Below are positions 3,723-29,663 of a stretch of 32,000 bases of DNA, piece by piece. The DNA lies in contig NC_013967.1 of NCBI RefSeq assembly GCF_000025685.1, positions 870,001-902,000 of the forward strand, in the 5' to 3' direction. Both the position numbers and the translations under genes were made by a program. This stretch comes from Haloferax volcanii DS2. GTDB taxonomy: Archaea; Halobacteriota; Halobacteria; Halobacteriales; Haloferacaceae. The notes below the pieces were generated by a model. It had not been told where the DNA came from. It saw only the letters and a list, made by a program, of their open reading frames with translations, and did not search any database. Numbering within the stretch: the stretch's first letter is position 1; every line of letters starts with the position of its first letter.

Positions 3723-4385
3723 TCACGACCGGCCGACGAGGTCGGCCATGACTTTCATCTCCGCCTTTCGCAGGTGTTCCGCCGCGGTGCTCGTCGAGCA
3801 GTCGAGCCGCGCGGCCACGTCGGCGACCGCCCCGGTCCGCGGCTCGCGGTAGTAGCCGCAGTCGACGGCGGCCTCGACGGCCTCGCGCTGGCGGGGCGAC
3901 AGCGACCCGGCGGAGACGCTCCCCGGTCCCGTGCACTCCCGCACCCGCACGACTTCGAGGCCGCGGCCCTCGGGGAGCTGTTCGACCGCCGACTGGAGCG
4001 CCTCGTCGGTCCCGACGAGCGTCATCGAGACCGTTCCGTCGCCGTCGAAGACGACCGGCGGGACGACGATGAGACCGCCCCGCGTGACGGCGGCCGTCTG
4101 CCTCGTTCCCGCCGCGTCGAGCCGCTCGTCGACCACGATGAAAAAGGAGTCGCCGGGGAGCTGGGAGAGTTCGTACGACAGGATGCGCTCCGTCTCCGCG
4201 AGCGCCGCCTCGTAGGCCTCGACGTCGGTCCCGAAGACCTCGAAGACGATGGTGTTCCTGTCGGTCACCGTCGGGTTCCAGTGGTGGAGTTCGGTCCGCT
4301 CGAACGCCTCGTGGTCGACGACGAACTCGTGCATCGGATGCAACTGTTCGTCGTCGGGCGTGAAGCGAAGCCTGACCGATTTCAT
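3723..4385 (-). CDS. HTH_10 (bacterio-opsin-activator-type) helix-turn-helix transcription regulator
   Basis: C-terminal HTH_10 signature (LSPRQREAVEAAVDCGYYREPRTGAVADVAARLDCSTSTAAEHLRKAEMKVMADL). The start is set at ATG 4385 (MKSVRLRFTPDDEQLHPMHEF..., the usual N-terminus of this haloarchaeal family) because TTTTTAT lies 26-32 nt upstream. ATG 4412 and the track start 4610 are alternatives. Confidence 0.85.
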   Translation of the reverse strand: MKSVRLRFTPDDEQLHPMHEFVVDHEAFERTELHHWNPTVTDRNTIVFEVFGTDVEAYEAALAETERILSYELSQLPGDSFFIVVDERLDAAGTRQTAAVTRGGLIVVPPVVFDGDGTVSMTLVGTDEALQSAVEQLPEGRGLEVVRVRECTGPGSVSAGSLSPRQREAVEAAVDCGYYREPRTGAVADVAARLDCSTSTAAEHLRKAEMKVMADLVGRS

Positions 4386-4410
4386 GCCGGCGAATTGATT
4401 CGACTGCGAC

Positions 4411-4417
4411 ATAAAAA
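4411..4417 (-). promoter_or_regulatory. TATA box (TTTTTAT on minus strand) of the HTH_10 gene, possibly bidirectional with orphan nuoCD
   Basis: The only AT-rich element in the 85-nt divergent spacer. Centred 29 nt upstream of ATG 4385. Confidence 0.4.
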
Positions 4418-4470
4418 CCGGCCGCACTCGTGAGGCAGAACGAGGAACCGACGACCGGACGAACGGGCGG

Positions 4471-6177
4471 ATGTCAACCGTCATGTCACTCGAACGCCCG
4501 CAGCAGCCCCCCGAGTCCGACGCCGACCCCGCCGCGCTCGCCGACGACGCCTCCGGTCCCCTCGACGCCGACGCGCTCCGGCGGGCGTTGGGCGACGCCG
4601 TCCTCGCCACCGAGGAGCACGTTCACGCACCCGCGGTGCAGATTCGCCCCGACGCGGTGCAGTCGTCGCTTTCGGCCCTCCGCGACGACCTCGGTCTCGA
4701 CCACCTCTCGTGTGTGACCGCACAGGAGTACGAGGACCGCTACGAGTCCGTCTATCACCTGAAATCGTACGACGACCCGACCCGAGAGGCGAGCGTCGTC
4801 GTCCCGACGCCGCGCTCGGACCCGGTGAGCGAGTCCGCCGCGCCGGTGTTTCGGACGGCCGAGTGGCACGAGCGGGAGGCGTACGACCTCGTCGGTATCC
4901 AGTACGAAAACCACCCGGACCTGCGCCGCATCCTCCTGCCGGAGACGTGGCAAGGTCATCCCCTCGGGCTGGACTACGACCGGACGCGCCCGCAGGTCGT
5001 CCGGTACGACGAGAACGCGAACCCGCTTGCCGAAGACGGCCGCGCCGACACGAACACGATGCTCCTCAACATCGGGCCGCACCACCCGGCGACTCACGGC
5101 GTGATGCATCTGCAAGTCACGCTGGACGGCGAGCAGGTCGCGGACGTGGAGCCCGACATCGGCTACATCCACCGCTGCGAGGAGCAGATGTGTCAGCAGG
5201 GAACCTATCGACATCAGATTATGCCGTACCCCGACCGCTGGGACTGGGGCGGCGGCGGCCTCCTGAACGAGTGGGCGTACGCCCGCACCGCGGAGGCGCT
5301 GGCGGATATCGACGTGCCCGAGTACGCACAGGTGCTTCGGACGCTGGCGGCCGAACTGAGCCGCATCCTCTCGCACATGCTCGCGGTCGGCGCGTACGCC
5401 CTCGACGTCGTCGGCGATTTCACCGCGACGTTCATGTACGCCATGCGGGACCGCGAACTCGTCCAGAACATCCTCGAAGACCTCACGGGCCAGCGGCTGA
5501 TGTTCAACTACTTCCGGCTCGGCGGGGTCGTCTGGGACCTCCCCGAACCCCGCGAGGAGTTCTTCGAGAAGATTCGGACGTTCGTCGACGGCCTCCCCGA
5601 GAAACTGCGGGAGTACCACGACCTCCTGACGGCGAACGAGATTTTGCAGGCCCGCACGGTCGAGACCGGAATCCTCCCGCCGGAGGTGGCCAAGGACTAC
5701 GGCGTGACGGGGCCGGTCGCCCGCGGCTCCGGCATCGACTACGACCTCCGCCGCGACGACCCCTACGGCTACTACGACGAACTCGACTGGTCGGTCGCCG
5801 TCGAGGACGGCTGCGACAACTTCGCGCGCCTGCTCGTCCGCCTCCGCGAGGTCGAGGAGTCGGCCACCATCGTCGCCCAATGTGTCGACCTGCTCGAAGA
5901 CTGGCCCGACGACGACCGGACCATCCAGGCGAACGTCCCGCGCACCCTCAAACCGGACGACGACACCGAGGTCTACCGCGCGGTCGAGGCCGCGAAAGGT
6001 GAGTTGGGTATCTACATCCGCGCCGACGGCACCGACACCCCGGCGCGGTTCAAGATTCGCGGCCCCTCGTTTTCGAATCTCCAGTCGCTCCCCGAGATGG
6101 CCGAAGGCGAGTACATCCCGGACCTCATCGCGGCGCTCGGAAGTCTCGACACGATAATGGGAGAAGTAGACCGGTAG
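4471..6177 (+). CDS. nuoCD: NADH-quinone oxidoreductase subunit C/D fusion, stand-alone paralogue
   Basis: 568 aa, collinear with the operon NuoCD at 20363-22036. NuoC motif (EREAYDLVGIQYENHPDLRRILLPE) and NuoD motifs (NIGPHHPATHGV, GELGIYIRADG, SLDTIMGEVDR). ATG 4483 (MSLERPQQ...) aligns better with the operon copy start (MSLEEQQ...) and is an alternative start. Confidence 0.93.
   Translation: MSTVMSLERPQQPPESDADPAALADDASGPLDADALRRALGDAVLATEEHVHAPAVQIRPDAVQSSLSALRDDLGLDHLSCVTAQEYEDRYESVYHLKSYDDPTREASVVVPTPRSDPVSESAAPVFRTAEWHEREAYDLVGIQYENHPDLRRILLPETWQGHPLGLDYDRTRPQVVRYDENANPLAEDGRADTNTMLLNIGPHHPATHGVMHLQVTLDGEQVADVEPDIGYIHRCEEQMCQQGTYRHQIMPYPDRWDWGGGGLLNEWAYARTAEALADIDVPEYAQVLRTLAAELSRILSHMLAVGAYALDVVGDFTATFMYAMRDRELVQNILEDLTGQRLMFNYFRLGGVVWDLPEPREEFFEKIRTFVDGLPEKLREYHDLLTANEILQARTVETGILPPEVAKDYGVTGPVARGSGIDYDLRRDDPYGYYDELDWSVAVEDGCDNFARLLVRLREVEESATIVAQCVDLLEDWPDDDRTIQANVPRTLKPDDDTEVYRAVEAAKGELGIYIRADGTDTPARFKIRGPSFSNLQSLPEMAEGEYIPDLIAALGSLDTIMGEVDR
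4697..4749 (+). repeat. 53-nt tract identical to 20553-20605 (nuoCD paralogue pair)
   Basis: Base-by-base comparison: tcgaccacctctcgtgtgtgaccgcacaggagtacgaggaccgctacgagtcc occurs in both copies. Confidence 0.95.
5498..5576 (+). repeat. 79-nt tract identical to 21357-21435 (nuoCD paralogue pair)
   Basis: Base-by-base comparison: tgatgttcaactacttccggctcggcggggtcgtctgggacctccccgaaccccgcgaggagttcttcgagaagattcg occurs in both copies. Confidence 0.95.
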
Positions 6178-9447: not shown

Positions 9448-10692
9448 CTACCGCGGCGTCTCCGTCCCCCACTTATCGAGGGCGACGGCGAGCTCGGGCG
9501 TCTCTTCGGCGGCCTCGGTGATAGCGCGCCCCTCGACGTAGGCGTCGATGGCCGACCGGAGCGCGACCGCGCCCGCGCGGGTTCCGTCGGGATGACCGTG
9601 GATGCCGCCGCCGAGCTGGACACAGACGTTCGTCCCCGTGGCGTCGAGCAGGTCGGGGAGCAGACCGGGGTGGAGGCCGCCCGAGGCGACCGGGAGCACG
9701 TCGGTCGCGCCGTGGAGGTCGCCCGCGAGCCACTCGTTGATGCCGACGGTGTCCTCGTTGGCGAGTTTGCCGAGGCCGGCGGTGCCGGTGTGGAGCTGGT
9801 CGACGCCGCAGAGACGACTCACCTGCGCGAGCACCCGCATCGAGACGCCGTGGGCCGGAAGCCGGTCGAAGGCGGCGTGCATGGCGCGGTGGGCGTGGAT
9901 GGCGAGGCCGTGTTTCTCGGTGCGCTCGCGGACGGTCTGGAGGCCCGCCCAGCCCGCGGTGATGATGTCCACCATGACGTACTCGCCGCCCTGCGCGGCC
10001 ACCTCGTCGACCCGGTCGAGCATCGTCTGGGTGTCGGCGGTGACGTTGATGAGGTAGGACTTCTTCTCGCCCGTCTCGTCCTCGGCGTCGTCGCGGAGCG
10101 ACAGCGACTCCGTGAGGCGGTCGGAGAAGGGGTTGAACGCCTGGTCGGTCAGGTTCTCGTCGTCCTTCAGGAGGTCGACGCCGCCGACCCACGCGTCGTA
10201 GCCGACCTGTGCGTGTGCGGCCGTCGAGAGGCCGACTTTCGGCTTGGGCACCGTCGCCGTGATGGGGCGGTCGGTGACGCCGAATATCTCCTCGCGGACC
10301 GACGACCCGTACAGCGGGCCGGGGTACGCCGAGACGACCGACTCGGGCCACTCGCAGTCGAGGAGGCGAATCGTGTCGACCGCCTTCATCCCCATGATGT
10401 TGCCGGCGATGCACGACAGCACCTGCGGCATGTTACCGGGTTCGAACAGCCCGGCGGGGTAGGCGACCCGAATCAGGTCGCCGTCGATGTCGAACGTCGT
10501 CGCGCCCATGTCGGTGAAGTCCGCGCCGGTCTGGAGGGCCGCCCACGTCCCGTTGGAGGACTCCGAGGCCACGCGACTCGCCGCCGCCTCCGTCGACATC
10601 CCCGTCGCGGGGTCGATACGGAAGGTGCAGACGAGGTCCTCGTCGGTCGGTTCGTAGTCGAGGTCGAGGAAGTCTTCGTACGTGATACCCAT
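9448..10692 (-). CDS. rbcL: ribulose-bisphosphate carboxylase, type III (large subunit only)
   Basis: 414 aa. RuBisCO motifs (GGVDLLKDDENL with the carbamylated Lys, HAHRAMHAAF, LHTGTAGLGKL, QLGGGIHGHPDG). No small-subunit gene nearby. Archaeal type III length and N-terminus. Confidence 0.95.
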   Translation of the reverse strand: MGITYEDFLDLDYEPTDEDLVCTFRIDPATGMSTEAAASRVASESSNGTWAALQTGADFTDMGATTFDIDGDLIRVAYPAGLFEPGNMPQVLSCIAGNIMGMKAVDTIRLLDCEWPESVVSAYPGPLYGSSVREEIFGVTDRPITATVPKPKVGLSTAAHAQVGYDAWVGGVDLLKDDENLTDQAFNPFSDRLTESLSLRDDAEDETGEKKSYLINVTADTQTMLDRVDEVAAQGGEYVMVDIITAGWAGLQTVRERTEKHGLAIHAHRAMHAAFDRLPAHGVSMRVLAQVSRLCGVDQLHTGTAGLGKLANEDTVGINEWLAGDLHGATDVLPVASGGLHPGLLPDLLDATGTNVCVQLGGGIHGHPDGTRAGAVALRSAIDAYVEGRAITEAAEETPELAVALDKWGTETPR

Positions 10693-19251: not shown

Positions 19252-19668
19252 ATGAGTGATTGGATTGCAATCGGTGCGATGGGGCTGGTCGGTGTCGGCA
19301 TACCGCTCGCGATGATGGCGGTGTCGGCGCTGCTTCGCCCAAGCGTACCGGAACAAGGAAAGAGTGCCACGTACGAGAGTGGTGAGGTGCCGACAGGTAC
19401 GGCGCGCGTCCAGTTTAACATTCAGTACTACATGGTCGCGCTGCTGTTCCTCGTATTCGACATCGAGACCGTCCTAATTTTCCCCTGGACGGTCATCTAC
19501 CGCTCGGCCCTCGAACAGGGCGCGTCGCTAGCGACGATTCTGACGCCGATGCTCGTTTTCATCGGTGTCCTCGTCGTCGGCCTCGTCTGGGCGTGGCGCA
19601 ACGGCGCAGTCAAGTGGGTCAAAAGCCCGCAGGCAAACCGTCGTAAGACAGAGAGGCAAGATGCATGA
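19252..19668 (+). CDS. nuoA: NADH-quinone oxidoreductase subunit A
   Basis: 138 aa, 3 TM. Signature YYMVALLFLVFDIETVLIFPW. First gene of the nuo cluster. Confidence 0.93.
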   Translation: MSDWIAIGAMGLVGVGIPLAMMAVSALLRPSVPEQGKSATYESGEVPTGTARVQFNIQYYMVALLFLVFDIETVLIFPWTVIYRSALEQGASLATILTPMLVFIGVLVVGLVWAWRNGAVKWVKSPQANRRKTERQDA

Positions 19669-20366
19669 GTAGCGAACAGAAGCCATTCGTCACGGACGAC
19701 ACACAGGTACAGACCGAGACTCGCGACGCCCGCATGGCGGGGGCGGACGACCGGTTCAACTCGAAGCTTCGGGAGGCGTTCGGCTCGTCACCGTTCATCC
19801 TCACGAAGTTCGACAAGTTCATGAACTGGGTCCGCGGGTCCTCGATGTTCATGCTGCAGTTCGGTATCGCGTGCTGCAGCATCGAGATGATGCACACCTA
19901 CTCGGTGAAACACGACCTCGACCGCTTTGCGGCCGGGGTCCCGCGTGCGTCGCCGCGGCAGGCCGACGTGATTATCGTGCCGGGGACCATCGTCTCGAAG
20001 TTCGCCCCGCGCATGAAGCGCGTCTACGACCAGATGCCCGAACCGAAGTTCGTCGTCGGCATGGGGTCGTGTACGATTTCCGGCGGCCCGTTCCAGGAGG
20101 GCTACAACGTCATCAAGGGCGCAGAAGAGGTCATTCCGGTGGACATTCACATCCCCGGCTGTCCGCCGCGCCCGGAGGCGCTCATCTACGGTATCGCGAA
20201 GCTGCAAGAGCGCATCGCCAACGGCGAGTCCAGCCCGGTGACGGTCAAGCCGTACGAGCTGGAGCAGTTCGGCGACCTCGAACGCGACGAAATCGTCGAC
20301 AAGCTCGCCGAGGAGATCGACGAAGAGGACCTCGTCATGCGGTACAACTGGGCTGATTCGCCATGA
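19665..20366 (+). CDS. nuoB: NADH-quinone oxidoreductase subunit B
   Basis: 233 aa. N2-cluster cysteines ([30 protein letters not shown]). ATGA overlap with nuoA. Confidence 0.95.
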
Positions 20367-22036
20367 GCCTCGAAGAACAGCAGTCCGACGACCCCGCGGA
20401 ACTCGAATCGGGCGTCAGCCGCGGCGACGAACTCGCAGAGCTGCTCGGCGACCTCGTCGTCGGCCGCGAAGAGCACCTGAACGCGCCCGGCCTCGTCATC
20501 CGTCCCGACGAGGTCCAAGACGCGCTGTTCAAACTCCGCGACGAAGCGGGCTTCGACCACCTCTCGTGTGTGACCGCACAGGAGTACGAGGACCGCTACG
20601 AGTCCATCTACCACCTGACGAAGTTCGACGACCGGACCGACGAGGTCTCGGTCGTCGTGCCCACGTCGAAGGACAACCCGGTCAGTCAGTCCGCCGAGCC
20701 GGTGTTCCGGACGGCCGACTGGCACGAGCGGGAGGCGTACGACCTCGTCGGTATCCAGTACGAGGACCATCCGGACCTGCGTCGCATCCTCCTGCCGGAG
20801 ACGTGGCAGGGTCACCCGCTCGGGCTTGACTACGACCAGGACCGCCCGCAGATTGCGACGCTCCGCGAGCACGCGAACCCGCTCGAAGAGGACCACCGCG
20901 CCGGGGACAGCAACACGATGTACATCAACATCGGTCCCCACCACCCGGCGACCCACGGCGTGCTGCACGTCGAGACGGTCGTCGACGGCGAACAGGTCGT
21001 CGACCTCGAATCCGACATCGGCTACCTCCACCGCTGCGAGGAACAGATGTGTCAACAGGGGACCTACCGGCACCAGATTATGCCGTACCCCGACCGCTGG
21101 GACTACATCTCGTCGGGTCTCCTGAACGAGTGGGCGTACGCCCGCGCCGCCGAGGACCTCGCGGACATCGAGGTGCCCGAGTACGCCCAGATTATCCGCA
21201 CGATGGGTGCGGAACTGTGCCGCATCGCGTCGCACATGATCGCGCTCGGCACGTTCGCGCTGGACGTCTACGGCGACTTCACGGCCATCTTCATGTACGC
21301 CATGCGGGACCGCGAGATCGTCCAGAACATTCTGGAGGACCTCACGGGCCAGCGCATGATGTTCAACTACTTCCGGCTCGGCGGGGTCGTCTGGGACCTC
21401 CCCGAACCCCGCGAGGAGTTCTTCGAGAAGATTCGCGACTTCATGGACGGGCTCCCGCAGGCGCTCGAGGAGTACCACGACATGATTACCTCGAACGAAA
21501 TCCTGCAGGCCCGGACGGTCGGCACGGGCGTCCTGTCGCCGGAAGTCGCAAAGAGCTACGGCGCGACCGGGCCGGTCGCCCGCGGCTCCGGTATCGACTA
21601 CGACCTCCGTCGCGACGACTCCTACGGCTACTACGACGAACTCGAGTGGGACGTCGTCGTCGAGGACGGCTGCGACAACTTCTCGCGCCTGCTCGTGCGC
21701 ATGCGCGAAGTCGAGGAGTCGGCCAAGATCATCCAGCAGTGTGTCGACCTGCTCGAAGACTGGCCCGAAGACGAGCGGAACATCCAGGCGAACGTTCCGC
21801 GCACCCTCAAGCCCGACGAGGACACGGAAATCTACCGCGCCGTCGAGGGCGCGAAGGGCGAACTCGGCATCTACATCCGCGCGGACGGCACGGACAAGCC
21901 GGCTCGCTTCAAGATTCGGAGCCCGTGTTTCTCGAACCTCCAGACGCTCCCCGAGATGTCCGAGGGTGAGTACATTCCGGACATGATTGCCTCGCTCGGC
22001 AGCCTCGACATCGTGCTCGGAGAGGTGGACAGGTGA
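20363..22036 (+). CDS. nuoCD: NADH-quinone oxidoreductase subunit C/D fusion (operon copy)
   Basis: 557 aa. NuoC plus NuoD motifs (EREAYDLVGIQYEDHPDLRRILLPE, NIGPHHPATHGV, DRWDYISSG, SLDIVLGEVDR). ATGA overlap with nuoB. Confidence 0.95.
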   Translation: MSLEEQQSDDPAELESGVSRGDELAELLGDLVVGREEHLNAPGLVIRPDEVQDALFKLRDEAGFDHLSCVTAQEYEDRYESIYHLTKFDDRTDEVSVVVPTSKDNPVSQSAEPVFRTADWHEREAYDLVGIQYEDHPDLRRILLPETWQGHPLGLDYDQDRPQIATLREHANPLEEDHRAGDSNTMYINIGPHHPATHGVLHVETVVDGEQVVDLESDIGYLHRCEEQMCQQGTYRHQIMPYPDRWDYISSGLLNEWAYARAAEDLADIEVPEYAQIIRTMGAELCRIASHMIALGTFALDVYGDFTAIFMYAMRDREIVQNILEDLTGQRMMFNYFRLGGVVWDLPEPREEFFEKIRDFMDGLPQALEEYHDMITSNEILQARTVGTGVLSPEVAKSYGATGPVARGSGIDYDLRRDDSYGYYDELEWDVVVEDGCDNFSRLLVRMREVEESAKIIQQCVDLLEDWPEDERNIQANVPRTLKPDEDTEIYRAVEGAKGELGIYIRADGTDKPARFKIRSPCFSNLQTLPEMSEGEYIPDMIASLGSLDIVLGEVDR

Positions 22037-23085
22037 TGCATCTGCAAGCGGTCCTTCCGGACACGGTCAGCGGCCTCCTCGGTCTCGAAGGCATCCTCGG
22101 GGACGTCGTCGGCGGCCTCGTCGGCGCGTTCCTCGTCGCCAACATCATGCTCATCATGACGGCGTTCGCCGGGCCGTGGGCGAAGCGGAAAATCACGGCC
22201 GCCTTCGCCGACCGCATCGCGGTCAACCGAATCGGTCCGTTCGGTCTCCTGACCATCGTCACGGACGCGGTCCGTCTGCTGTCGAAGGAACTCGTCGTCC
22301 CCGAGGGCGTCGACCGTCCCGCCTGGGACCTCGCGCCGATGGTCATTCCCTTCTCCGCGCTGCTCGGATTCGCCGTCATCCCGATGGGCAACGGCATCCA
22401 GCTCGCGGACCCCGAAACCGGTCTCGCCTTTGCCTTCGCCGCGGCGTCTATCGCCTCGCTCGGCATCGTCATGACCGGCTACGCATCGAACAACAAGTTC
22501 TCGCTCATCGGCGCGCTCCGCGCCGTCGCGGCGAACATCGCTTACGAGATTCCGCTGGTCGTCACGGCGGCCTCGGTCGTTATCTTCGCCGGGTCGCTCC
22601 GCATGAGCGAAATCGTCGCCGTGCAGGCCGAACCGCTGCTTTCGGTCGCCGGCGTGACGATTCCGACGTGGTTCGCGTTCGTGAACCCCTTCGCGTTCGC
22701 GCTGTTCGTCATCGCGAACCTCGCGGAGGTCGGCCGCAACCCGTTCGACATCCCCGAAGCGCCGACCGAGATTGTCGCCGGGTACCAGACCGAGTACTCC
22801 TCGGTCTACTTCGTGCTCATCTACCTCGGTGAGTTCATCCACATCTTCCTCGGCGGCGCTATCGCGGCGACCCTGTTCCTCGGCGGTCCGGCGGGCCCGG
22901 TTCTCCCCGGATTCGTCTGGTTCACAATCAAAATCTGGGCGTTCTTCCTGTTCACCCAGTGGGCGCGCTCCGCAGTGCCGCGCCTTCGCGTCGATCAGTT
23001 CCTCGAAATCGGTTGGAAGGGGATGCTCGTGCTCTCCTTCGCCAACCTGGTTCTCACGGCCATCATCGTGGGGGTGATTGCATGA
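22036..23085 (+). CDS. nuoH: NADH-quinone oxidoreductase subunit H
   Basis: Polytopic. Signature EVGRNPFDIPEAPTEIVAGYQTEYSS. ATG 22036 overlaps the nuoCD stop (TGATG). GTG 22033 is the alternative given by the ORF track. Confidence 0.93.
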   Translation: MHLQAVLPDTVSGLLGLEGILGDVVGGLVGAFLVANIMLIMTAFAGPWAKRKITAAFADRIAVNRIGPFGLLTIVTDAVRLLSKELVVPEGVDRPAWDLAPMVIPFSALLGFAVIPMGNGIQLADPETGLAFAFAAASIASLGIVMTGYASNNKFSLIGALRAVAANIAYEIPLVVTAASVVIFAGSLRMSEIVAVQAEPLLSVAGVTIPTWFAFVNPFAFALFVIANLAEVGRNPFDIPEAPTEIVAGYQTEYSSVYFVLIYLGEFIHIFLGGAIAATLFLGGPAGPVLPGFVWFTIKIWAFFLFTQWARSAVPRLRVDQFLEIGWKGMLVLSFANLVLTAIIVGVIA

Positions 23086-23543
23086 TCGGAATCCTGAAAG
23101 GCATGGCAGTGACGCTGAAGCACGCGCTCGACGGGCAGACGTTCACGGTCGAGTACCCCGAGACCGCGCCCGAAGTGAGCCCGCGTTTCCGCGGCGTCCA
23201 CAAGTTCAGCCAAGAGCGGTGTATCTGGTGTCGCCAGTGTGAGAACGTCTGTCCGAACGACACGATTCAGATCGTTCAGGACGACCAGCGCAACGGCGAG
23301 CAGTACAACCTCCACATCGGCCAGTGTATCTACTGCCGGCTGTGCGAGGAGGTCTGTCCCGTCGACGCCATCCTGCTCACGCAGAACTTCGAGTTCACGG
23401 CGGACACGAAAAACGACTTCGTCTACAACAAAGAACAGCTCAAGAACGTCCCGTGGTACAAGGATATCGACCCGCTCAACTCCCGCAACCCCGACCGCAA
23501 CGCGTGGGTCGGCGAGGGCGAAGGAGAGGTCGACTACCAGTAA
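23082..23543 (+). CDS. nuoI: NADH-quinone oxidoreductase subunit I (2x[4Fe-4S] ferredoxin)
   Basis: 153 aa from ATG 23082 (ATGA overlap with nuoH). Two Cys boxes, CIWCRQCENVCP and CIYCRLCEEVCP. The track start 22959 lies inside nuoH and is rejected. Confidence 0.93.
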   Translation: MIGILKGMAVTLKHALDGQTFTVEYPETAPEVSPRFRGVHKFSQERCIWCRQCENVCPNDTIQIVQDDQRNGEQYNLHIGQCIYCRLCEEVCPVDAILLTQNFEFTADTKNDFVYNKEQLKNVPWYKDIDPLNSRNPDRNAWVGEGEGEVDYQ

Positions 23544-23648
23544 CATGACCGCGAGTGAATCGTTCGAGTCCCGTCAGCCCGCGTCCGCTACCGGACGCTG
23601 AGGACGTTCTCGAAATGTTCAAAGGGATATCTCAAGGAGACACACACA

Positions 23649-23909
23649 ATGGTTTATGAAACCATCGCGTTCGCGCTGTTCGCCCTCGTCACCGTGGGTT
23701 GCAGCCTGGGCGTCGTCCTCGTGCGGGACATCTGGCATTCCGCACTCCTGCTCGGGGGCGCGCTCTTGAGCGTCGCGGTGCATTACGTGATGTTGCAGGC
23801 GGAGTTCCTCGCCGCCATGCAGGTCCTCGTCTACGTCGGCGGGGTCCTGATTCTCATCACGTTCGCCGTGATGCTGACGCGTATCAATCCGGAGGTGAGT
23901 AGTACATGA
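23649..23909 (+). CDS. nuoJ1: NADH-quinone oxidoreductase subunit J, N-terminal part
   Basis: 86 aa, 3 TM (…LQAEFLAAMQVLVYVGGVLILITFAVML). Preceded by the SD-like GGAGACAC at 23636-23643. Confidence 0.85.
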   Translation: MVYETIAFALFALVTVGCSLGVVLVRDIWHSALLLGGALLSVAVHYVMLQAEFLAAMQVLVYVGGVLILITFAVMLTRINPEVSST

Positions 23910-24274
23910 CAACCAAACCGCAGCTGAAACTCGGTTCGCACCTCGTGCCCGGACTCGCTGCCGTCGCGCTGTTCGTCGTGATGGCGGTCGTGTTCCTCGG
24001 CGCGTCGTTCCCGAACCCACAGGGGTTCCCGGAGGGAGCAAACATCACCGCGAGCATCGGCTATTCGATGTTCAACCTCGGGTTCGGAAGCGTCGACGGC
24101 GAGAGCATGCTGGTCGCGTTCGAAATCATCGACCTCGTGCTCGTCGCCGCGCTCGCCGGCGCGGTGCTCCTCGCTCGCCGCGAGGACACCACGGGACAGA
24201 TGCGGACCATCCTGACCGACGGCGGTCGGGAGCTCAAGCAGACGCTGTTCGACGACGAGGAGGGTGACAACTGA
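23906..24274 (+). CDS. nuoJ2: NADH-quinone oxidoreductase subunit J, C-terminal part
   Basis: 122 aa, 2 TM (LVPGLAAVALFVVMAVVFL, FEIIDLVLVAALAGAVLLA). ATGA-coupled to nuoJ1. A split J is usual in haloarchaea as far as I recall. Confidence 0.8.
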   Translation: MTTKPQLKLGSHLVPGLAAVALFVVMAVVFLGASFPNPQGFPEGANITASIGYSMFNLGFGSVDGESMLVAFEIIDLVLVAALAGAVLLARREDTTGQMRTILTDGGRELKQTLFDDEEGDN

Positions 24275-24576
24275 TGGTGCCCGCGCAGTACTACCTCGTT
24301 TTGTCGGCCGCCGTGTTCTGCATCGGCATCTTCGGCCTCTTGACCCGTCGGAACGCGCTGTTGTTCCTGATGTCGGTCGAACTGATGCTGAACGCCGCGA
24401 ACATCAACCTCGTCGCGTTCTCCTACTACTGGGGTAACGTGACGGGCCAGACGTTCGGGCTGTTCACGATGGCGCTCGCCGCCGCCGAGGTGGCGGTCGG
24501 TATCGGCATCATCCTCGTACTGTACCGCAACTTCGACGGCGTGGACGTGACCAACGCGACCACGATGAGGTGGTAA
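24274..24576 (+). CDS. nuoK: NADH-quinone oxidoreductase subunit K
   Basis: 100 aa, 3 TM. Signature LMSVELMLNAANINLVAFS with the conserved Glu. Confidence 0.92.
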   Translation: MVPAQYYLVLSAAVFCIGIFGLLTRRNALLFLMSVELMLNAANINLVAFSYYWGNVTGQTFGLFTMALAAAEVAVGIGIILVLYRNFDGVDVTNATTMRW

Positions 24577-24579
24577 TCT

Positions 24580-26616
24580 ATGGCAGGTATCTTAGACTTC
24601 GCTCCGGCCATCGTCCTCCTCCCGTTCCTCTCGTTCCTGATCGCACTCGGGGCGGGACGGTACATGCCGAAGGGAGGCGCGCTGGCGGGTATCGGCGCGA
24701 CGGCGGGCTCGTTCGTCCTGTCCATCGCGACGTTCTTCGCCGTCAGCGGCGGACAGACCTACAACCAACACATCTACACGTGGGCGACCGGCGCCGGCGA
24801 CGCGGTGACGCTCGACTTCGGCCTACTCATCGACCCGCTTTCGTCGATGATGCTCGTCATCGTGACGCTCGTCGCCGTCCTCGTCCACATCTTCAGCCTC
24901 GGCTACATGAACGACGAGGGCGAGACGGGCCTCCCGCGCTACTACGCCGGGCTCGGCCTGTTCACCGCGTCGATGCTGGCGTTCGTCGTGTCCAGCAACC
25001 TCCTCATGGCGTTCATGTTCTTCGAGCTGGTGGGGCTGTGTTCCTACCTGCTCATCGGCTTCTGGTTCCGCCAGGAGGGCCCGCCGAGCGCCGCGAAGAA
25101 GGCGTTCCTCGTCACCCGCTTCGGTGACTACTTCTTCCTCATCGGCGTCGTCGCGGTGTTCGCGACGTTCGGCTCGGCGGCGTTCGCCGGTCCCGAGGCG
25201 TTCCCGGTCCTCGCCGAGGAGGCGCTCCACGGCGAGCACGCGGTCAACACGTTCCTCGGCATGGGCGAACAGGCGTGGTTCACCGTCGTCGGCCTCCTCG
25301 TTCTCGGGGGCGTCGTCGGCAAGTCCGCGCAGTTCCCCCTGCACACGTGGCTTCCGGACGCGATGGAAGGCCCGACCCCCGTCTCCGCGCTCATTCACGC
25401 GGCGACGATGGTTGCCGCGGGTGTCTACCTCGTCGCCCGGATGTACGGTTTCTACGCGCTGACCCCGACGACGCTCGGTATCATCGCGCTCGTGGGCGGC
25501 TTCACGGCCCTCTTCGCCGCGACGATGGGCGTCGTCAAGAAAGAAATCAAGCAGGTGCTCGCGTACTCGACCATCAGCCAGTACGGCTACATGATGCTCG
25601 GGCTCGGCGTCGGCGGCTACGTCGCCTCGACGTTCCACCTGCTCACGCACGCCTTCTTCAAGGCGCTTCTGTTCCTCGGTGCCGGTGCGGTCATCATCGC
25701 GATGCACCACAACGAGAACATGTGGGACATGGGCGGCCTCAAAGACAAGATGCCCGTGACGTACTACGCGTTCCTCTCGGGCTCGCTCGCGCTCGCCGGC
25801 ATCGTTCCGTTCGCCGGCTTCTGGTCGAAAGACGAGATTCTGTACGAGGCGCTCAACCACGGGCTCGGGACCGACGGCGGTCTCGGAACCGTCTTCCTCG
25901 TCGCGTACGCGATGGGGCTCATCGCCGTGTTCTTCACCGGGTTCTACACCTTCCGGATGGTGTTCCTCACCTTCCACGGCGAACCGCGTAGCGACACCGC
26001 GCGCGACCCGCACGGCTTCGGCTGGAACGTCAAGTTCCCGCTCGCCGTCCTCGGCGTGCTCGCGGCCGTCATCGGCCTCGTCAACATGGCTCCGGTGGAG
26101 GACCTCACGGGGATTCACCTCACGTTCCTCCACGACTGGCTCGACGGCGGCATCTCGTCGCTGACCGCGCACCACTACCTCGAAGTGCTCGAAAGCGGCG
26201 TCGGTGCGGGGCTCCACCCGGCCGGAATCGGCTCTATCGCGCCGGGGCTGGTCTCGCTGGCCCTCGCCCTCGCGGGTGCCGGACTCGCCTACCGCCTGTA
26301 CAACGTCCCCGAGCCCGTCGAACACACGGACAAGCTCGGGAGCATCAAGACCGTACTGTACAACAACTACTACCAGGACGAGTACCAGGTCTGGATTGCG
26401 ACCGGCGTCGTCCAGCCCATCTCTCGCGCCCTCGATAAGTTCGACCAGGGCATCGTCGACGGCGTCGTCAACGGTATCTCCAGCGTGAGCCTGTTCGCTG
26501 GCGGTCGCGTCAAGCGCGTCCAGACCGGTGTGGTGAGCAACTACGCGGCGCTCCTCACGCTCGGTCTGACCGCGCTGCTTCTCGGTCTCGGTCTGCTCGG
26601 AGGTTGGTTCGCATGA
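24580..26616 (+). CDS. nuoL: NADH-quinone oxidoreductase subunit L
   Basis: 678 aa antiporter-like subunit (HTWLPDAMEGPTPVSALIHAATMVAAGVYL) with a C-terminal extension consistent with the lateral helix. Confidence 0.95.
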   Translation: MAGILDFAPAIVLLPFLSFLIALGAGRYMPKGGALAGIGATAGSFVLSIATFFAVSGGQTYNQHIYTWATGAGDAVTLDFGLLIDPLSSMMLVIVTLVAVLVHIFSLGYMNDEGETGLPRYYAGLGLFTASMLAFVVSSNLLMAFMFFELVGLCSYLLIGFWFRQEGPPSAAKKAFLVTRFGDYFFLIGVVAVFATFGSAAFAGPEAFPVLAEEALHGEHAVNTFLGMGEQAWFTVVGLLVLGGVVGKSAQFPLHTWLPDAMEGPTPVSALIHAATMVAAGVYLVARMYGFYALTPTTLGIIALVGGFTALFAATMGVVKKEIKQVLAYSTISQYGYMMLGLGVGGYVASTFHLLTHAFFKALLFLGAGAVIIAMHHNENMWDMGGLKDKMPVTYYAFLSGSLALAGIVPFAGFWSKDEILYEALNHGLGTDGGLGTVFLVAYAMGLIAVFFTGFYTFRMVFLTFHGEPRSDTARDPHGFGWNVKFPLAVLGVLAAVIGLVNMAPVEDLTGIHLTFLHDWLDGGISSLTAHHYLEVLESGVGAGLHPAGIGSIAPGLVSLALALAGAGLAYRLYNVPEPVEHTDKLGSIKTVLYNNYYQDEYQVWIATGVVQPISRALDKFDQGIVDGVVNGISSVSLFAGGRVKRVQTGVVSNYAALLTLGLTALLLGLGLLGGWFA

Positions 26617-28142
26617 TAATCGAAGCGCTCATCGCAGTCACGTTCCTCGCCGCGCTGGTCACCTTCGTCCTGCCGGACCGGTACGCCGGCAAGGCGGCCT
26701 TCGCGCTGAGTCTGGCTCCCGTCGTCGGGAGCCTCTACATGTGGCAACAGTACGACGCGAGCGGGAACGCCCTCCTGGGCGGGAACATCGCGTTCGAGAC
26801 AGACATCGCCTGGCTGCAACTCGGCCAGTACGACATTCACTGGATGGTCGGCGTCGACGGCATCAGCATGCCGCTTGTCGTCCTCACGACCGTCCTCACC
26901 ACGCTCGCTATCGTCAGCGCGTGGACGCCCATCTCGGAGCGTCAGTCCCAGTTCTTCGGCCTGATGCTCCTGATGGAGGCGAACCTGCTCGGCGTCTTCA
27001 CGGCGCTCGACTTCTTCGTCTGGTTCATCTTCTGGGAGGCCGTGCTCCTGCCGATGTACTTCCTCATCGGCGTCTGGGGCGGTCCACGCCGCAAGTACGC
27101 GGCGATCAAGTTCTTCGTCTACACGAACATCGCGTCGCTCGTGATGTTCATCGGCTTCATATCGCTCGTGTTCGGTCTCGGCGACTCTATCTCGTCGTTC
27201 CGTCTGCCCGAAATCGCGCAGGCGTTGCAGGCCGGACAGCTCGGGAGCTTCGCGGGACTGTCGGCCGGCGCGCTCGCGTCTGTCGCGTTCGTCGCGATGT
27301 TCTTCGGGTTCGCGGTGAAGGTCCCGGTCGCCCCGCTTCACACGTGGCTGCCGGACGCACACGTCGAGGCCCCCACGCCGGTGTCGGTCATGCTGGCGGG
27401 GGTCCTCCTGAAGATGGGTACGTACGCCCTGCTCCGGTTCAACTTCACGATGCTGCCGGAGACGGCGCGCGCCTTCGCGCTGCCCATCGCCCTGCTCGCC
27501 GTCGCGAGCGTCATCTACGGCGCACTGCTCGCGCTGGCCCAGCAGGACCTCAAGCGCATCGTCGCGTACTCCTCCGTCTCGTCGATGGGGTACGTCATCC
27601 TCGGTCTCATCGCCTACACCACCTACGGCGTCGGTGGTGCGACCTTCCAGATGGTCGCCCACGGCCTCATCTCCGGACTGATGTTCATGGCCGTCGGTGT
27701 CATCTACAACACGACCCACACGCGCATGGTGTCGGACATGTCCGGCATCGCCGACCGGATGCCCGTCACGGCGGGCATCTTCGTCGCCGGCGCGTTCGGC
27801 TACATGGGCCTGCCGCTCATGGCCGGCTTCGCGGCCGAGTTCTTCATCTTCAAGGGCGCGTTCGAGTCCACGGTGATGGAGGCGATGCCGCTGTTCACCG
27901 GCGCCGCGATGTTCGGTATCGTCATCGTCGCCGGCTACCTGCTGTTCGCGATGCAGCGGACGCTGTTCGGACCGTTCCGGTTCGACGGCGACTACGACAT
28001 CACGGAGGCACCGTTCCACGACGTTGCACCCCTCGCGGTGCTGTTGCTTCTGACCATCGTGCTCGGTGTCTCGCCCGACATCTTCTTCACGATGATTCAG
28101 GACGCGGTTAACCCGATTCTCGAACTGGGAGGTGCGTTCTAG
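26613..28142 (+). CDS. nuoM: NADH-quinone oxidoreductase subunit M
   Basis: Antiporter-like subunit (HTWLPDAHVEAPTPVSVMLAGVLLKMGTYALLRF). ATG 26613 forms an ATGA overlap with the nuoL stop. The track start 26604 is GTG. Confidence 0.94.
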   Translation: MIIEALIAVTFLAALVTFVLPDRYAGKAAFALSLAPVVGSLYMWQQYDASGNALLGGNIAFETDIAWLQLGQYDIHWMVGVDGISMPLVVLTTVLTTLAIVSAWTPISERQSQFFGLMLLMEANLLGVFTALDFFVWFIFWEAVLLPMYFLIGVWGGPRRKYAAIKFFVYTNIASLVMFIGFISLVFGLGDSISSFRLPEIAQALQAGQLGSFAGLSAGALASVAFVAMFFGFAVKVPVAPLHTWLPDAHVEAPTPVSVMLAGVLLKMGTYALLRFNFTMLPETARAFALPIALLAVASVIYGALLALAQQDLKRIVAYSSVSSMGYVILGLIAYTTYGVGGATFQMVAHGLISGLMFMAVGVIYNTTHTRMVSDMSGIADRMPVTAGIFVAGAFGYMGLPLMAGFAAEFFIFKGAFESTVMEAMPLFTGAAMFGIVIVAGYLLFAMQRTLFGPFRFDGDYDITEAPFHDVAPLAVLLLLTIVLGVSPDIFFTMIQDAVNPILELGGAF

Positions 28143-29663
28143 ATGACGCCCCTCCAGTCCGCTCCCCAGTGGTTCGCAACGGCTCCCGCCATCGTGCTCG
28201 CGTTGACGGGGCTCGCGCTGCTGCTCATCGACACCATCGACCCCGACTCCACGAACAACGGCCTCCTGGCCGGTACGGCGACGCTCGGCGCGCTCGCTGC
28301 CGGCGGCATCGCCGGTTGGTTCCTCATCGGCGGAACCGGCATGGAGTCCACCGGCGGCGCGATTTCGCTGTACGGCGACGCGCTCGTCGTCGACGGGATG
28401 AGCCTGTTCTTCACGCTCATCTTCACCAGCGTCGCCGCGATGGTCTCGGTCGCCTCGTACGACTACCTCGCGGACCAGCAGTACCAAGGCGAGTTCTACG
28501 CCCTCGTGCTGTTCGCCGCGACCGGCATGACCCTCATGGGGATGTCGAACTCGCTGGCGACCGTCTTCGTCAGCCTCGAACTGGCGTCCCTGCCCTCGTA
28601 CGCGCTCGTCGCGTTCCTCAAGAAGGACCGCGGCAGCATCGAGGCCGGGCTGAAGTACTTCCTCATCGGCGCGCTGTCGTCGGCGGTGTTCGCGTTCGGT
28701 ATCAGCCTCGTGTTCGCCGTCACCGGCTCGCTGGTGCTCCCGGAAATCGCCGCGACGCTCGCTGAGGGCACCGAACTGGTCGGCGTCCTCGGCCTCGGCG
28801 TGCTGATGATTGCCGGCGGCTTCGCGTTCAAGACCGCCTCCGTCCCGTTCCACTTCTGGGCGCCGGAGGCCTACGAGGGCGCGCCAGCGCCTGTGAGCGC
28901 GTTCCTCTCGTCGGCGTCGAAGGCGGCCGGATTCGCCGTCGCCTTCCGCGTGTTCACCGTCGCGTTCCCCCTGGAAACCGTCACCGAAATCGGCGGCGGG
29001 AGCGTCGACTGGTCGCTGCTGTTCGCGGTGCTCGCCGTCGTCACCATGACGCTCGGTAACTTCGCGGCGGCGACGCAGAACAACGTCAAGCGGATGCTCG
29101 CGTACTCCTCTATCGGTCACGCGGGGTACGCGCTCATCGGTCTCGCGGCCATCACCACCGACGGCGGTGCCGCGAACGGTGACGTCCTCGGCGCGAGCAT
29201 GGCTCACCTGTTCGTCTACGGCTTCATGAACACGGGCGCGTTCCTGTTCATCGCCATGGTCGAAAAGTGGGGCCTCGGCCGCACGTTCGAGGACTACAAC
29301 GGTATCGCGTCGAAGGCACCCATCGCCGCCTCGGCGATGACCGTCTTCATGTTCTCGCTCGCGGGGCTTCCGCCGTTCGGCGGCTTCTTCTCGAAGTACG
29401 CCCTGTTCGAGTCGGCCATCGGCTCCGGCTTTTGGTGGCTCGCCGCGGTCGGCGCGGTCAACAGCGCACTGTCGCTGTTCTACTACAGCCGCGTCGTGAA
29501 GGCGATGTGGATCGAGGAGCCGTCGAAGCCCCTCGAAATCGGCAGTCAGCCGGTCGGTCTCTACGTGGCGATCGTCTTCGCCGCGGTGGGGACGGTCCTG
29601 CTCCTGCCCGGTTTCCAGCCCGTCATCGAGACGGCTCAGACCGTCGCCGCCGCGCTCTTCTGA
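28143..29663 (+). CDS. nuoN: NADH-quinone oxidoreductase subunit N
   Basis: 506 aa antiporter-like subunit (PFHFWAPEAYEGAPAPVSAFLSSASKAAGFAV). Its ATG immediately follows the nuoM TAG. Confidence 0.94.
   Translation: MTPLQSAPQWFATAPAIVLALTGLALLLIDTIDPDSTNNGLLAGTATLGALAAGGIAGWFLIGGTGMESTGGAISLYGDALVVDGMSLFFTLIFTSVAAMVSVASYDYLADQQYQGEFYALVLFAATGMTLMGMSNSLATVFVSLELASLPSYALVAFLKKDRGSIEAGLKYFLIGALSSAVFAFGISLVFAVTGSLVLPEIAATLAEGTELVGVLGLGVLMIAGGFAFKTASVPFHFWAPEAYEGAPAPVSAFLSSASKAAGFAVAFRVFTVAFPLETVTEIGGGSVDWSLLFAVLAVVTMTLGNFAAATQNNVKRMLAYSSIGHAGYALIGLAAITTDGGAANGDVLGASMAHLFVYGFMNTGAFLFIAMVEKWGLGRTFEDYNGIASKAPIAASAMTVFMFSLAGLPPFGGFFSKYALFESAIGSGFWWLAAVGAVNSALSLFYYSRVVKAMWIEEPSKPLEIGSQPVGLYVAIVFAAVGTVLLLPGFQPVIETAQTVAAALF

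Follow-up and report, generated by a model that had tools for sequence, protein, structure and literature searches.

The window analysed here is a 32,000-nucleotide stretch of the main chromosome of the haloarchaeon Haloferax volcanii DS2 (NC_013967.1, positions 870,001 to 902,000, so that the chromosomal coordinate is the window coordinate plus 870,000). It carries two genes for a fused NuoC-NuoD protein, a catalytic subunit of the quinone-binding module (Q module) of complex I-type enzymes. One lies in a nuo operon and the other, nuoCD2, stands alone. We focus on nuoCD2, whose product has a tryptophan in place of the tyrosine that binds the quinone head group. The genes in question are as follows.

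4483..6177, forward strand: nuoCD2 (HVO_0968), 564 amino acids plus stop, a stand-alone "W-type" fused NuoC-NuoD and an exact match to ADE04960.2.
20363..22036, forward strand: nuoCD1 (HVO_0980), the canonical "Y-type" operon copy (protein ADE04185.1) that NuoCD2 would replace.
19252..29663, forward strand: the operon nuoA-B-CD1-H-I-J-K-L-M-N, without nuoEFG, encoding the presumed partner subunits of NuoCD2.

An initial annotation made from the DNA letters had recognized two fused nuoCD reading frames that align over their full length. BLASTP confirms this, with 430 of 565 aligned positions identical (76%) and 86% positives between proteins of the same length. Gaps are limited to the N-terminal ~35 residues and one single-residue indel, the one-codon indel already seen by eye. 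The stand-alone frame had been placed at 4471-6177 (568 amino acids); the gene is real, and its start moves to the ATG at 4483, as in ADE04960.2 and all orthologs. A codon-aware comparison of the two copies, proposed at that time, gave a Nei–Gojobori dN/dS of 0.31 overall. The strong divergence noted at the N-terminus is evident in these values (0.66 in the first 68 codons versus about 0.2 in the NuoD half), as is the bias towards third positions, with 94, 73, and 169 differences at codon positions 1, 2, and 3.

Both proteins contain the Pfam domains Complex1_30kDa and Complex1_49kDa. In NuoCD2, Complex1_30kDa (E = 1.9e-35) followed by Complex1_49kDa (E = 2.3e-81) spans the full length, and the protein matches E. 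coli, Aquifex, and Thermus chains in the PDB with E-values down to 1e-90, the best match being the Aquifex "NuoC/D 2". We considered and rejected the large subunit of group 4 [NiFe]-hydrogenases (Ech/Mbh/Hyc-like). The RxCGxC and DPCxxC motifs of that family are absent from NuoCD2, which reads GPHHPATHG and LDTIMGEVDR, and hydrogenase-like representatives have CGIC in the corresponding place and much lower scores against NuoCD2.

The stand-alone gene is monocistronic and lies 14 kb from the operon, outside the usual slot between nuoB and nuoH. No other nuo gene was found within 13 kb of it, as first described. The operon copy had been reported as ATGA-coupled on both sides, which is correct for nuoB/nuoCD1, while the nuoCD1/nuoH junction is GTGATG. 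Only by haloarchaeal standards is the operon "complete": NuoEFG are missing, and the complex is probably not an NADH dehydrogenase, its electron donor being unknown, with ferredoxin suspected (PMC8305020). The initial annotation knew of no characterised, separately regulated alternative Q-module subunit in an archaeal complex I. The gene was in fact already annotated: in the supplement of Pfeiffer & Dyall-Smith 2021, HVO_0968 bears the name nuoCD2 and is described, without a function, as a 75% paralog of nuoCD1 (HVO_0980) (PMC8305020); our literature search found no paper discussing nuoCD2 itself.

The most informative feature of the pair was overlooked in that first description. NuoCD2 differs from the operon copy by a set of fixed active-site substitutions that includes loss of the quinone-binding tyrosine. 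The elements of the site are listed here.

5083..5097, forward strand: beta1-beta2 loop with His201 and His205, both retained and equivalent to Nqo4 H34 and H38.
5245..5259, forward strand: W255-G256-G257-G258-G259, with Trp at the site of the Tyr that binds the quinone head group; the corresponding residues of the operon copy are Y-I-S-S-G.
5359..5412, forward strand: helix segment with S293, L296, Y305, and V310 around the retained Asp308, placed by alignment to Nqo4.
6061..6069, forward strand: G527 and S529, where the operon copy has S520 and C522; they map to Nqo4 A372 and S374.
6151..6159, forward strand: T557-I558-M559 within the C-terminal LDxxxGEVDR, with I558 the equivalent of a piericidin site.

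Fourteen positions are diagnostic of W-types, all of them in NuoD, and NuoCD2 has the W-type residue at every one (I229, W255, G256, G257, S293, L296, Y305, V/I310, L382, G527, S529, T557, I558, and M559). We placed them by alignment to Thermus Nqo4 and mammalian numbering (mammalian = Thermus + 21) and by published contacts. They map to Nqo4 Y87, L88, H89, G136, V403, M404, and others. The sharpest local difference is DRWDY-ISSG in the operon copy versus DRWDW-GGGG in the stand-alone copy. In alignments with PDB chains W255 corresponds to Thermus Nqo4 Y87, the Tyr of DRIEY in E. coli NuoCD, mammalian NDUFS2 Tyr108, and the tyrosine of Aquifex DRMDY, so that Trp falls on Tyr in every case. This position is W in 35/35 W-clade genes and Y in 46/46 Y-type genes. 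All stand-alone copies continue with [G/S/N/C]-G-[G/A]-G after the W, and operon copies read Y-[I/V/L..]-S-[A/S]-G.

The tyrosine has been described as strictly conserved, as a ligand of the quinone head group and a proton donor, and as a residue that the inhibitors piericidin, aureothin, and pyridaben contact with their head groups; its part in coupling and in the reduction of quinone remains under debate (PMC8119997). In the mouse structure with bound piericidin, Tyr108, His59, Asp160, Val424, and Phe425 dominate the binding energy (PMC7567858). Several of the diagnostic residues lie at or beside these sites. I558 is equivalent to Nqo4 V403, mammalian Val424, Rhodobacter capsulatus V407, and Yarrowia V460, and M559 to Nqo4 M404 and mammalian Phe425; the same source gives Val424 as the R. 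capsulatus V407 piericidin-resistance site. Y305 adjoins the equivalent of T135/Thr156 and V310 comes shortly after that of D139/Asp160, residues whose roles in the mammalian pocket we take from PMC7567858. According to the summary given there, Yarrowia variants of the tyrosine retain near-wild-type Vmax with the quinones Q1 and Q2, with increased Km and increased inhibitor IC50 (half-maximal inhibitory concentration).

The relay residues H201, H205, and D308 (Nqo4 H34, H38, and D139; D139 is mammalian Asp160) are kept in NuoCD2, as are the HRxEE motif and the C-terminal GEVDR. Y-types conserve 244 NuoD columns at 95% or more, and of these W-types keep 183, fix a different residue in 10, and relax 51. 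Judged by this mapping, the fourteen co-adapted, fixed substitutions remodel the pocket that holds the head group of quinone or inhibitor, and a fixed active-site difference of this kind means that nuoCD1 and nuoCD2 are not redundant.

Two cysteines specific to the Y-type lineage, C286 (21218-21220) and C522 (21926-21928) of HVO_0980, correspond to serines at 5359-5361 and 6067-6069 of nuoCD2. Ser/Cys counts among W-types at these positions are 34/1 and 35/0, and Thermus has Ser at both.

Between orthologs within Haloferax, dN/dS is 0.14–0.19 for nuoCD2 and 0.06–0.09 for the operon copy. Selection on nuoCD2 is purifying and somewhat relaxed, about 2-fold relative to nuoCD1. Proteins of the copy-2 type are 82–96% identical throughout the genus. 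Scanning a single genome for each species, we detected 29 stand-alone copies in 13 genera of Haloferacales and Halobacteriales, with several genomes carrying both W-type and Y-type nuoCD. Some 93 W-type clusters are found among the 120 closest in the database (90% identity), and dozens of species retain an intact frame. The split between W- and Y-types is recovered in 283/300 bootstrap replicates with the motif columns removed. Rooting with bacterial outgroups supports W monophyly at 62% and Y monophyly at 51%; with the closer archaeal fused NuoCD outgroups the values are 46% and 71%. Trp is derived for the family overall, yet Methanonatronarchaeales, the closest outgroup, carry it too. A 102-amino-acid fragment of the diagnostic region, used as a homology query, retrieved only short fragments. 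By its sequence relationships, stand-alone nuoCD2 belongs to an old paralog clade, apparently undescribed, that spans many haloarchaeal genera and megaplasmids.

As first reported, nuoCD2 is flanked by a divergent HTH_10 regulator gene and a convergent transducer gene of the methyl-accepting chemotaxis protein type (HVO_0969, htr39). The regulator and the region it shares with nuoCD2 comprise the following.

3723..4385, reverse strand: HVO_0967, a 220-amino-acid HTH_10 regulator (HVO_0513_N plus HTH_10 by Pfam), starting at ATG 4385 (MKSVRL...).
4386..4482, no strand assigned: divergent intergenic control region of 97 bp between HVO_0967 and nuoCD2.
4411..4417, no strand assigned: a TATA-like sequence, ATAAAAA, at 25 nt from the start codon of the regulator, an offset shared by nearly all genera.
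4422..4440, forward strand: operator-like element CCGCAC-TC-GTGAGGCAGAA, found once in the window.

An HTH_10 regulator adjoins 28 of the 29 stand-alone W-type loci, divergently in all but one, and none of 46 Y-type operon loci (Fisher p = 7e-16). It is the only neighbour of stand-alone copies conserved across genera, and its start codon and N-terminus are conserved across genera as well. An alternative start at GTG 4610 would give a 295-residue reading frame (3723-4610) that overlaps nuoCD2. We rejected it, as only the last 220 residues, from ATG 4385, are conserved; the longer frame is the kind of over-extension that GC-rich DNA typically produces. The earlier view of nuoCD2 as an intact, maintained, and separately transcribed second nuoCD is upheld by the ortholog dN/dS, by its occurrence in at least 13 genera, and by the adjacent regulator.

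In Haloferax the module sits between a gene resembling adenosine monophosphate (AMP)/thymidine phosphorylases (1193-2671) and one for type III RuBisCO (9448-10692), a pairing of archaeal AMP salvage. The salvage genes, RuBisCO, and htr39 are Haloferax-specific synteny (loci L001–L007) and lie outside the conserved module.

The control region has its own conserved architecture. The motif GGCAGAA follows the TATA box at a distance of 20–23 nt, close to where transcription of nuoCD2 would be expected to start, and is preceded by a CAC...GTG inverted repeat. Defined as a divergent regulator, a TATA box, 15–18 nt, and then GGCAGAA, the control-element module is present at nuoCD2. The TATA/GGCAGAA geometry occurs in 18/20 non-redundant loci, against 0.01 expected, and the distance from GGCAGAA to the nuoCD2 start codon is roughly 17–90 nt, mostly 37–50. 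The position of the TATA box would fit a leaderless regulator mRNA and, on the forward strand, a nuoCD2 promoter, and we infer from the conserved spacing that one TATA box serves both genes and that an operator covers the start site of nuoCD2. No known RNA element was found in the nuoCD2 leader (best Rfam match E = 0.58). A scan for bacterial-type promoters and terminators found nothing, and such models are not applicable to an archaeon.

Published expression data show that nuoCD2 is near-silent in laboratory culture. Differential RNA sequencing (dRNA-seq) under optimal growth gave no transcription start site for HVO_0968, and RNA sequencing under four conditions recorded no more than a sense fragment internal to the gene; the nuo operon, by contrast, yields a single 12.6-kb transcript of 13 genes. 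The ArcPP supplements examined contain no per-protein lists, and even HVO_0980 is absent from them, so they are uninformative on NuoCD2. At the regulator, dRNA-seq reproducibly places a start site at 4341 on the minus strand, 44 nt inside the reading frame despite the conserved start at 4385, and RNA sequencing records an antisense transcript at 4086-4413. These may reflect a shorter regulator isoform or a promoter region transcribed in both directions.

Taken together, we lean, by somewhat more than even chances, towards nuoCD2 encoding an alternative Q-module subunit with an altered quinone site, expressed only under certain conditions, for the 11-subunit Nuo-like complex of haloarchaea. The virtual lack of transcript in laboratory conditions could instead point to a neutral or decaying duplicate, or even to an assembly artefact, and a related nuoCD copy on a Halorientalis marina plasmid is indeed a pseudogene. 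The initial annotation had named a dN/dS near 1 combined with no transcript as the mark of decay. Laboratory transcript evidence is very weak, but selection is purifying, and an ortholog dN/dS of 0.14–0.19 means that the gene is not decaying; the wide conservation of the intact frame, the regulator, and the cis element agrees. As for an artefact, an identical protein recurs in several H. volcanii assemblies made independently, and Hfx. marisrubri and Hfx. denitrificans each have the two copies on one contig, arranged in the same order. An apparent frameshift in nuoCD2 of Hfx. prahovense DSM 18310 (locus L004, 8216-8316) comes from an assembly join, where 100 nt are duplicated exactly in tandem up to an N, and a second assembly of this species encodes an intact 564-residue NuoCD2 (P0133). 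Selection and conservation exclude decay and artefact, to which we leave next to no probability.

A further published data set bears on when nuoCD2 might be used. In Hfx. alexandrinus exposed to silver, a lone "nuoCD" was induced about 4-fold with no other nuo gene listed. Since the nuo operon is one transcript, a lone responder fits the monocistronic copy better, although which copy silver induces could not be established. Such a response would suit an isoform that replaces NuoCD1 under thiol-reactive or oxidative damage, in which the key change would be the loss of two exposed cysteines and not the gain of Trp, and C286 and C522 are Ser in essentially all W-types. The Ser of Thermus at both positions makes the cysteines a Y-type peculiarity with no obvious liability, and the coordinated changes in the Tyr loop and the C-terminal pocket are left unexplained. 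We consider this reading improbable.

That NuoCD2 could act as an alternative subunit, as we favour, gains support from genomes in which the W pocket is found in the operon itself. In four Halorientalis species (L009, L011, L012, and L013, compared with H. brevis, L085) and one metagenome-assembled genome (MAG), the nuoCD between nuoB and nuoH carries all 14 W residues, which indicates that the W pocket works inside the complex. Among matches listed down to 81% identity for a Y-type Haloarculaceae query, H. brevis was the only Halorientalis with a Y-type protein, in a normal operon; other Halorientalis species had no Y-type protein among the matches listed in the protein database. The species with a W-type operon thus probably rely on the W pocket alone. 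Their operon genes are mosaics, with the N-terminus and several segments like operon Y-types and residues 200–300 like stand-alone W-types. The operon nuoCD of Halorubrum sp. 48-1-W (L079, 8001-9668) has a Y-type backbone, 95–97% identical to other Halorubrum operon genes, with a W-GGGG patch identical to the stand-alone copy of its own genome (L041), and looks like the product of gene conversion between paralogs. Both cases suggest that pocket residues move into operon genes by gene conversion, and in these alignments the residues behave as a transferable, co-adapted set.

The Halorientalis and MAG operons bear on yet another possibility. Physiological quinone reduction is considered to require the tyrosine (PMC8119997, PMC7567858), and a NuoCD2 without this proton donor might be a dominant-negative brake or decoy that shuts quinone reduction down, or a moonlighting protein that works without the membrane arm. 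The lack of linkage between nuoCD2 and other nuo genes and its separate regulation are compatible with such a role. However, a brake that is always on makes little sense where the W pocket sits in the operon in what is apparently the sole NuoCD, and both the His/His/Asp relay and 75% of the Y-conserved NuoD core remain under constraint in NuoCD2. We rate a brake or moonlighting role slightly below even the damage-resistant isoform.

Homologs of nuoCD occur on 17 haloarchaeal plasmids. Nine of these copies were examined, of which five are W-type with the TATA/GGCAGAA element and four are Y-variants. Four of the five W plasmids have the divergent regulator, and the fifth, a conjugative plasmid of Halalkalicoccus, has a same-strand helix-turn-helix (HTH) gene nearby. 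The TATA/GGCAGAA arrangement is shared by the plasmid-borne copies of Haloarcula, Halobellus, Natrinema, and Halalkalicoccus. Carriage on plasmids, one of them conjugative, is expected of an accessory, selectable trait.

Tyr-containing accessory NuoCD proteins are encoded on megaplasmids of Haladaptatus, Halomarina, Halobaculum halophilum, and Halomicrococcus (L083, L089, L090, and L091), with the motif DRWDYT[A/S]N[L/M] or DRWDYASAG and none with the HTH_10 control element; the Halomicrococcus and Haladaptatus copies lie in nuoB-CD or nuoB-CD-I mini-clusters. Spare Q-module subunits seem common in haloarchaea. A small Cys-rich DUF7562 gene adjoins W-type nuoCD in six loci of six genera (L017, L051, L058, L084, L081, and L082). 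On two plasmids (L081, 5551-6861; L082, 5560-6864) DUF7562 is followed by a class I S-adenosylmethionine methyltransferase, with weak similarity to UbiE/COQ5 (6e-13), and then by a DUF3784 membrane protein. An alpha/beta hydrolase gene adjoins the HTH regulator gene on four plasmids (L082, L086, L087, and L088).

Across 150 diverse representatives of the family, the quinone-tyrosine position is Tyr in 112, Trp in 7, Phe in 5, and His in 3. Outside Halobacteria, Trp occurs in Methanonatronarchaeales, Methanofastidiosia, a Planctomycetota MAG, and others (P0282, P0284, and P0384; clusters P0329, P0342, P0361, and P0410). To our knowledge, neither Methanonatronarchaeales nor Methanofastidiosia use menaquinone.

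These observations give some weight to NuoCD2 as an isoform of different acceptor specificity, which would serve another acceptor or redox regime and not inhibitor evasion. The acceptor might be a modified or methylated menaquinone used under microoxic or anaerobic conditions, or a non-quinone acceptor as in Fpo-like enzymes. The remodelled head-group pocket applies equally to this reading, and Yarrowia Tyr variants discriminate between quinone substrates, as summarized in PMC7567858. The UbiE/COQ5-like methyltransferase and small membrane protein that follow the W module on two plasmids would fit this reading, as would the recurrence of Trp in NuoCD-like proteins of Methanonatronarchaeales and Methanofastidiosia. 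Yet the methyltransferase is present in only 2 of >35 W loci, the proteins of these methanogen relatives share none of the other 13 diagnostic residues, and a second quinone species for H. volcanii was not found documented in the literature searched. Moreover, several diagnostic positions coincide specifically with inhibitor-contact or resistance positions. We regard an acceptor isoform as unlikely, if the most serious of the competing explanations.

We therefore return to NuoCD2 as a conditionally expressed alternative subunit and set out how it might operate. Judged from conservation, HVO_0967 would control nuoCD2 through the conserved element that separates the start site of nuoCD2 from the shared TATA box, and would keep the gene silent in ordinary culture. 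Once induced, NuoCD2 would dock on the same NuoB, NuoH, and NuoI in place of NuoCD1. The swapped complex would still work with menaquinone, with altered chemistry at the quinone site, and the main consequence would be lower affinity for inhibitors that mimic the head group and hydrogen-bond to the tyrosine. We hypothesize that the overall logic is target replacement for a respiratory enzyme, for example under attack by respiratory inhibitors. Substitutions at inhibitor-contact and resistance positions, together with the Streptomyces mobaraensis precedent described below, make insensitivity to head-group inhibitors the most likely consequence, and the NuoCD2 quinone site is probably inhibitor-insensitive.

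Several points weigh against this interpretation. The silver-induced gene of Hfx. alexandrinus could be either copy. We know of no Q-site inhibitor from hypersaline communities. Trp cannot donate the proton ascribed to Tyr, which makes activity of NuoCD2 with menaquinone an assumption. The Trp of methanogen relatives, which comes without the other 13 residues, means that Trp alone is no sign of inhibitor resistance. Finally, the probable absence of a Y-type gene from Halorientalis species with a W-type operon is taken from protein-database listings.

A bolder version can be put forward as possible, though we hold it with clearly less confidence than the alternative subunit itself. Haloarchaea may carry a mobile, regulator-controlled cassette that exchanges the subunit at the quinone site for an inhibitor-insensitive one, an inducible target-replacement immunity spread by megaplasmids and by gene conversion into operon genes; in a variant of this idea, the Trp pocket may be a retained Fpo-like acceptor site of the methanogen type, and the pair of copies would allow a single membrane arm to work with two electron acceptors.

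What the haloarchaeal Nuo-like complex does, and even which substrates it uses, is acknowledged to be an open question (PMC8305020). H. volcanii is a genetically tractable model archaeon with two putatively interchangeable catalytic subunits, one with Tyr and one with Trp and a co-adapted pocket. The pair could show whether a complex I-type enzyme can run without the tyrosine, at what cost or gain, and what the physiological role of the complex is, and the signal of the dedicated regulator would reveal when the alternative site is needed. If inhibitor evasion is correct, this would be the first inducible target-replacement resistance of a respiratory complex as far as the literature searched extends; if the mobile-cassette idea is correct, it would imply unrecognised chemical warfare at the Q site in hypersaline communities. 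The existence of nuoCD2 was annotated previously, and what appears undescribed is a regulator-controlled, widespread, and partly plasmid-borne Q-module subunit that lacks the tyrosine.

Compared with NuoCD1 (HVO_0980), its closest relation in the cell, nuoCD2 is set apart by the 14 fixed substitutions, its own regulator and promoter, its monocistronic organization, and its near-silence in the laboratory. S. mobaraensis is a menaquinone-using organism. Its NuoD, from a producer of piericidin, has the same Tyr-to-Trp change as NuoCD2 at the position of NDUFS2 Tyr108, according to a statement in PMC7567858. The Trp there implies a functional enzyme with reduced inhibitor binding; our comparison concerns the Trp position alone. 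The statement deals with the producer's complex I genes, whereas the haloarchaeal W-type is a regulated spare beside a Tyr-type gene. Laboratory mutants offer a second precedent. W255 is equivalent to Y144 of the Yarrowia 49-kDa subunit, mutated to Y144F/W (Tocilescu et al. 2010, as cited in PMC8119997 and PMC7567858). In the Yarrowia mutants and the R. capsulatus V407 mutants, by these secondary accounts, the complex assembles and reduces short-chain quinones with a raised Km, and inhibitor IC50 increases. These are single laboratory mutations with a fitness cost, in contrast to the 14-residue co-adapted set that is naturally fixed in many genera.

Other organisms also hold paralogous or exchangeable parts of complex I. 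Aquifex aeolicus NuoCD2 (PDB 7q5y) is a paralogous subunit too, but it keeps the Tyr (DRMDY). Many Sinorhizobium and Rhizobium plasmids carry nuoCD homologs, and a second NDH-1 is plasmid-borne in rhizobia. Cyanobacterial NDH-1 variants use alternative NdhD/NdhF proteins and so swap antiporter subunits of the membrane arm. Aquifex, rhizobia, and cyanobacteria duplicate whole operons or swap antiporters and retain the Tyr, whereas haloarchaea duplicate only the catalytic subunit of the Q module, with a changed active site. The closest parallel in logic may be the novobiocin-resistant gyrB of producer Streptomyces, in which a sensitive housekeeping copy is accompanied by a separately regulated, insensitive spare. 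NuoCD2 would follow the same logic in another enzyme and another domain of life, with resistance in its case hypothesized.

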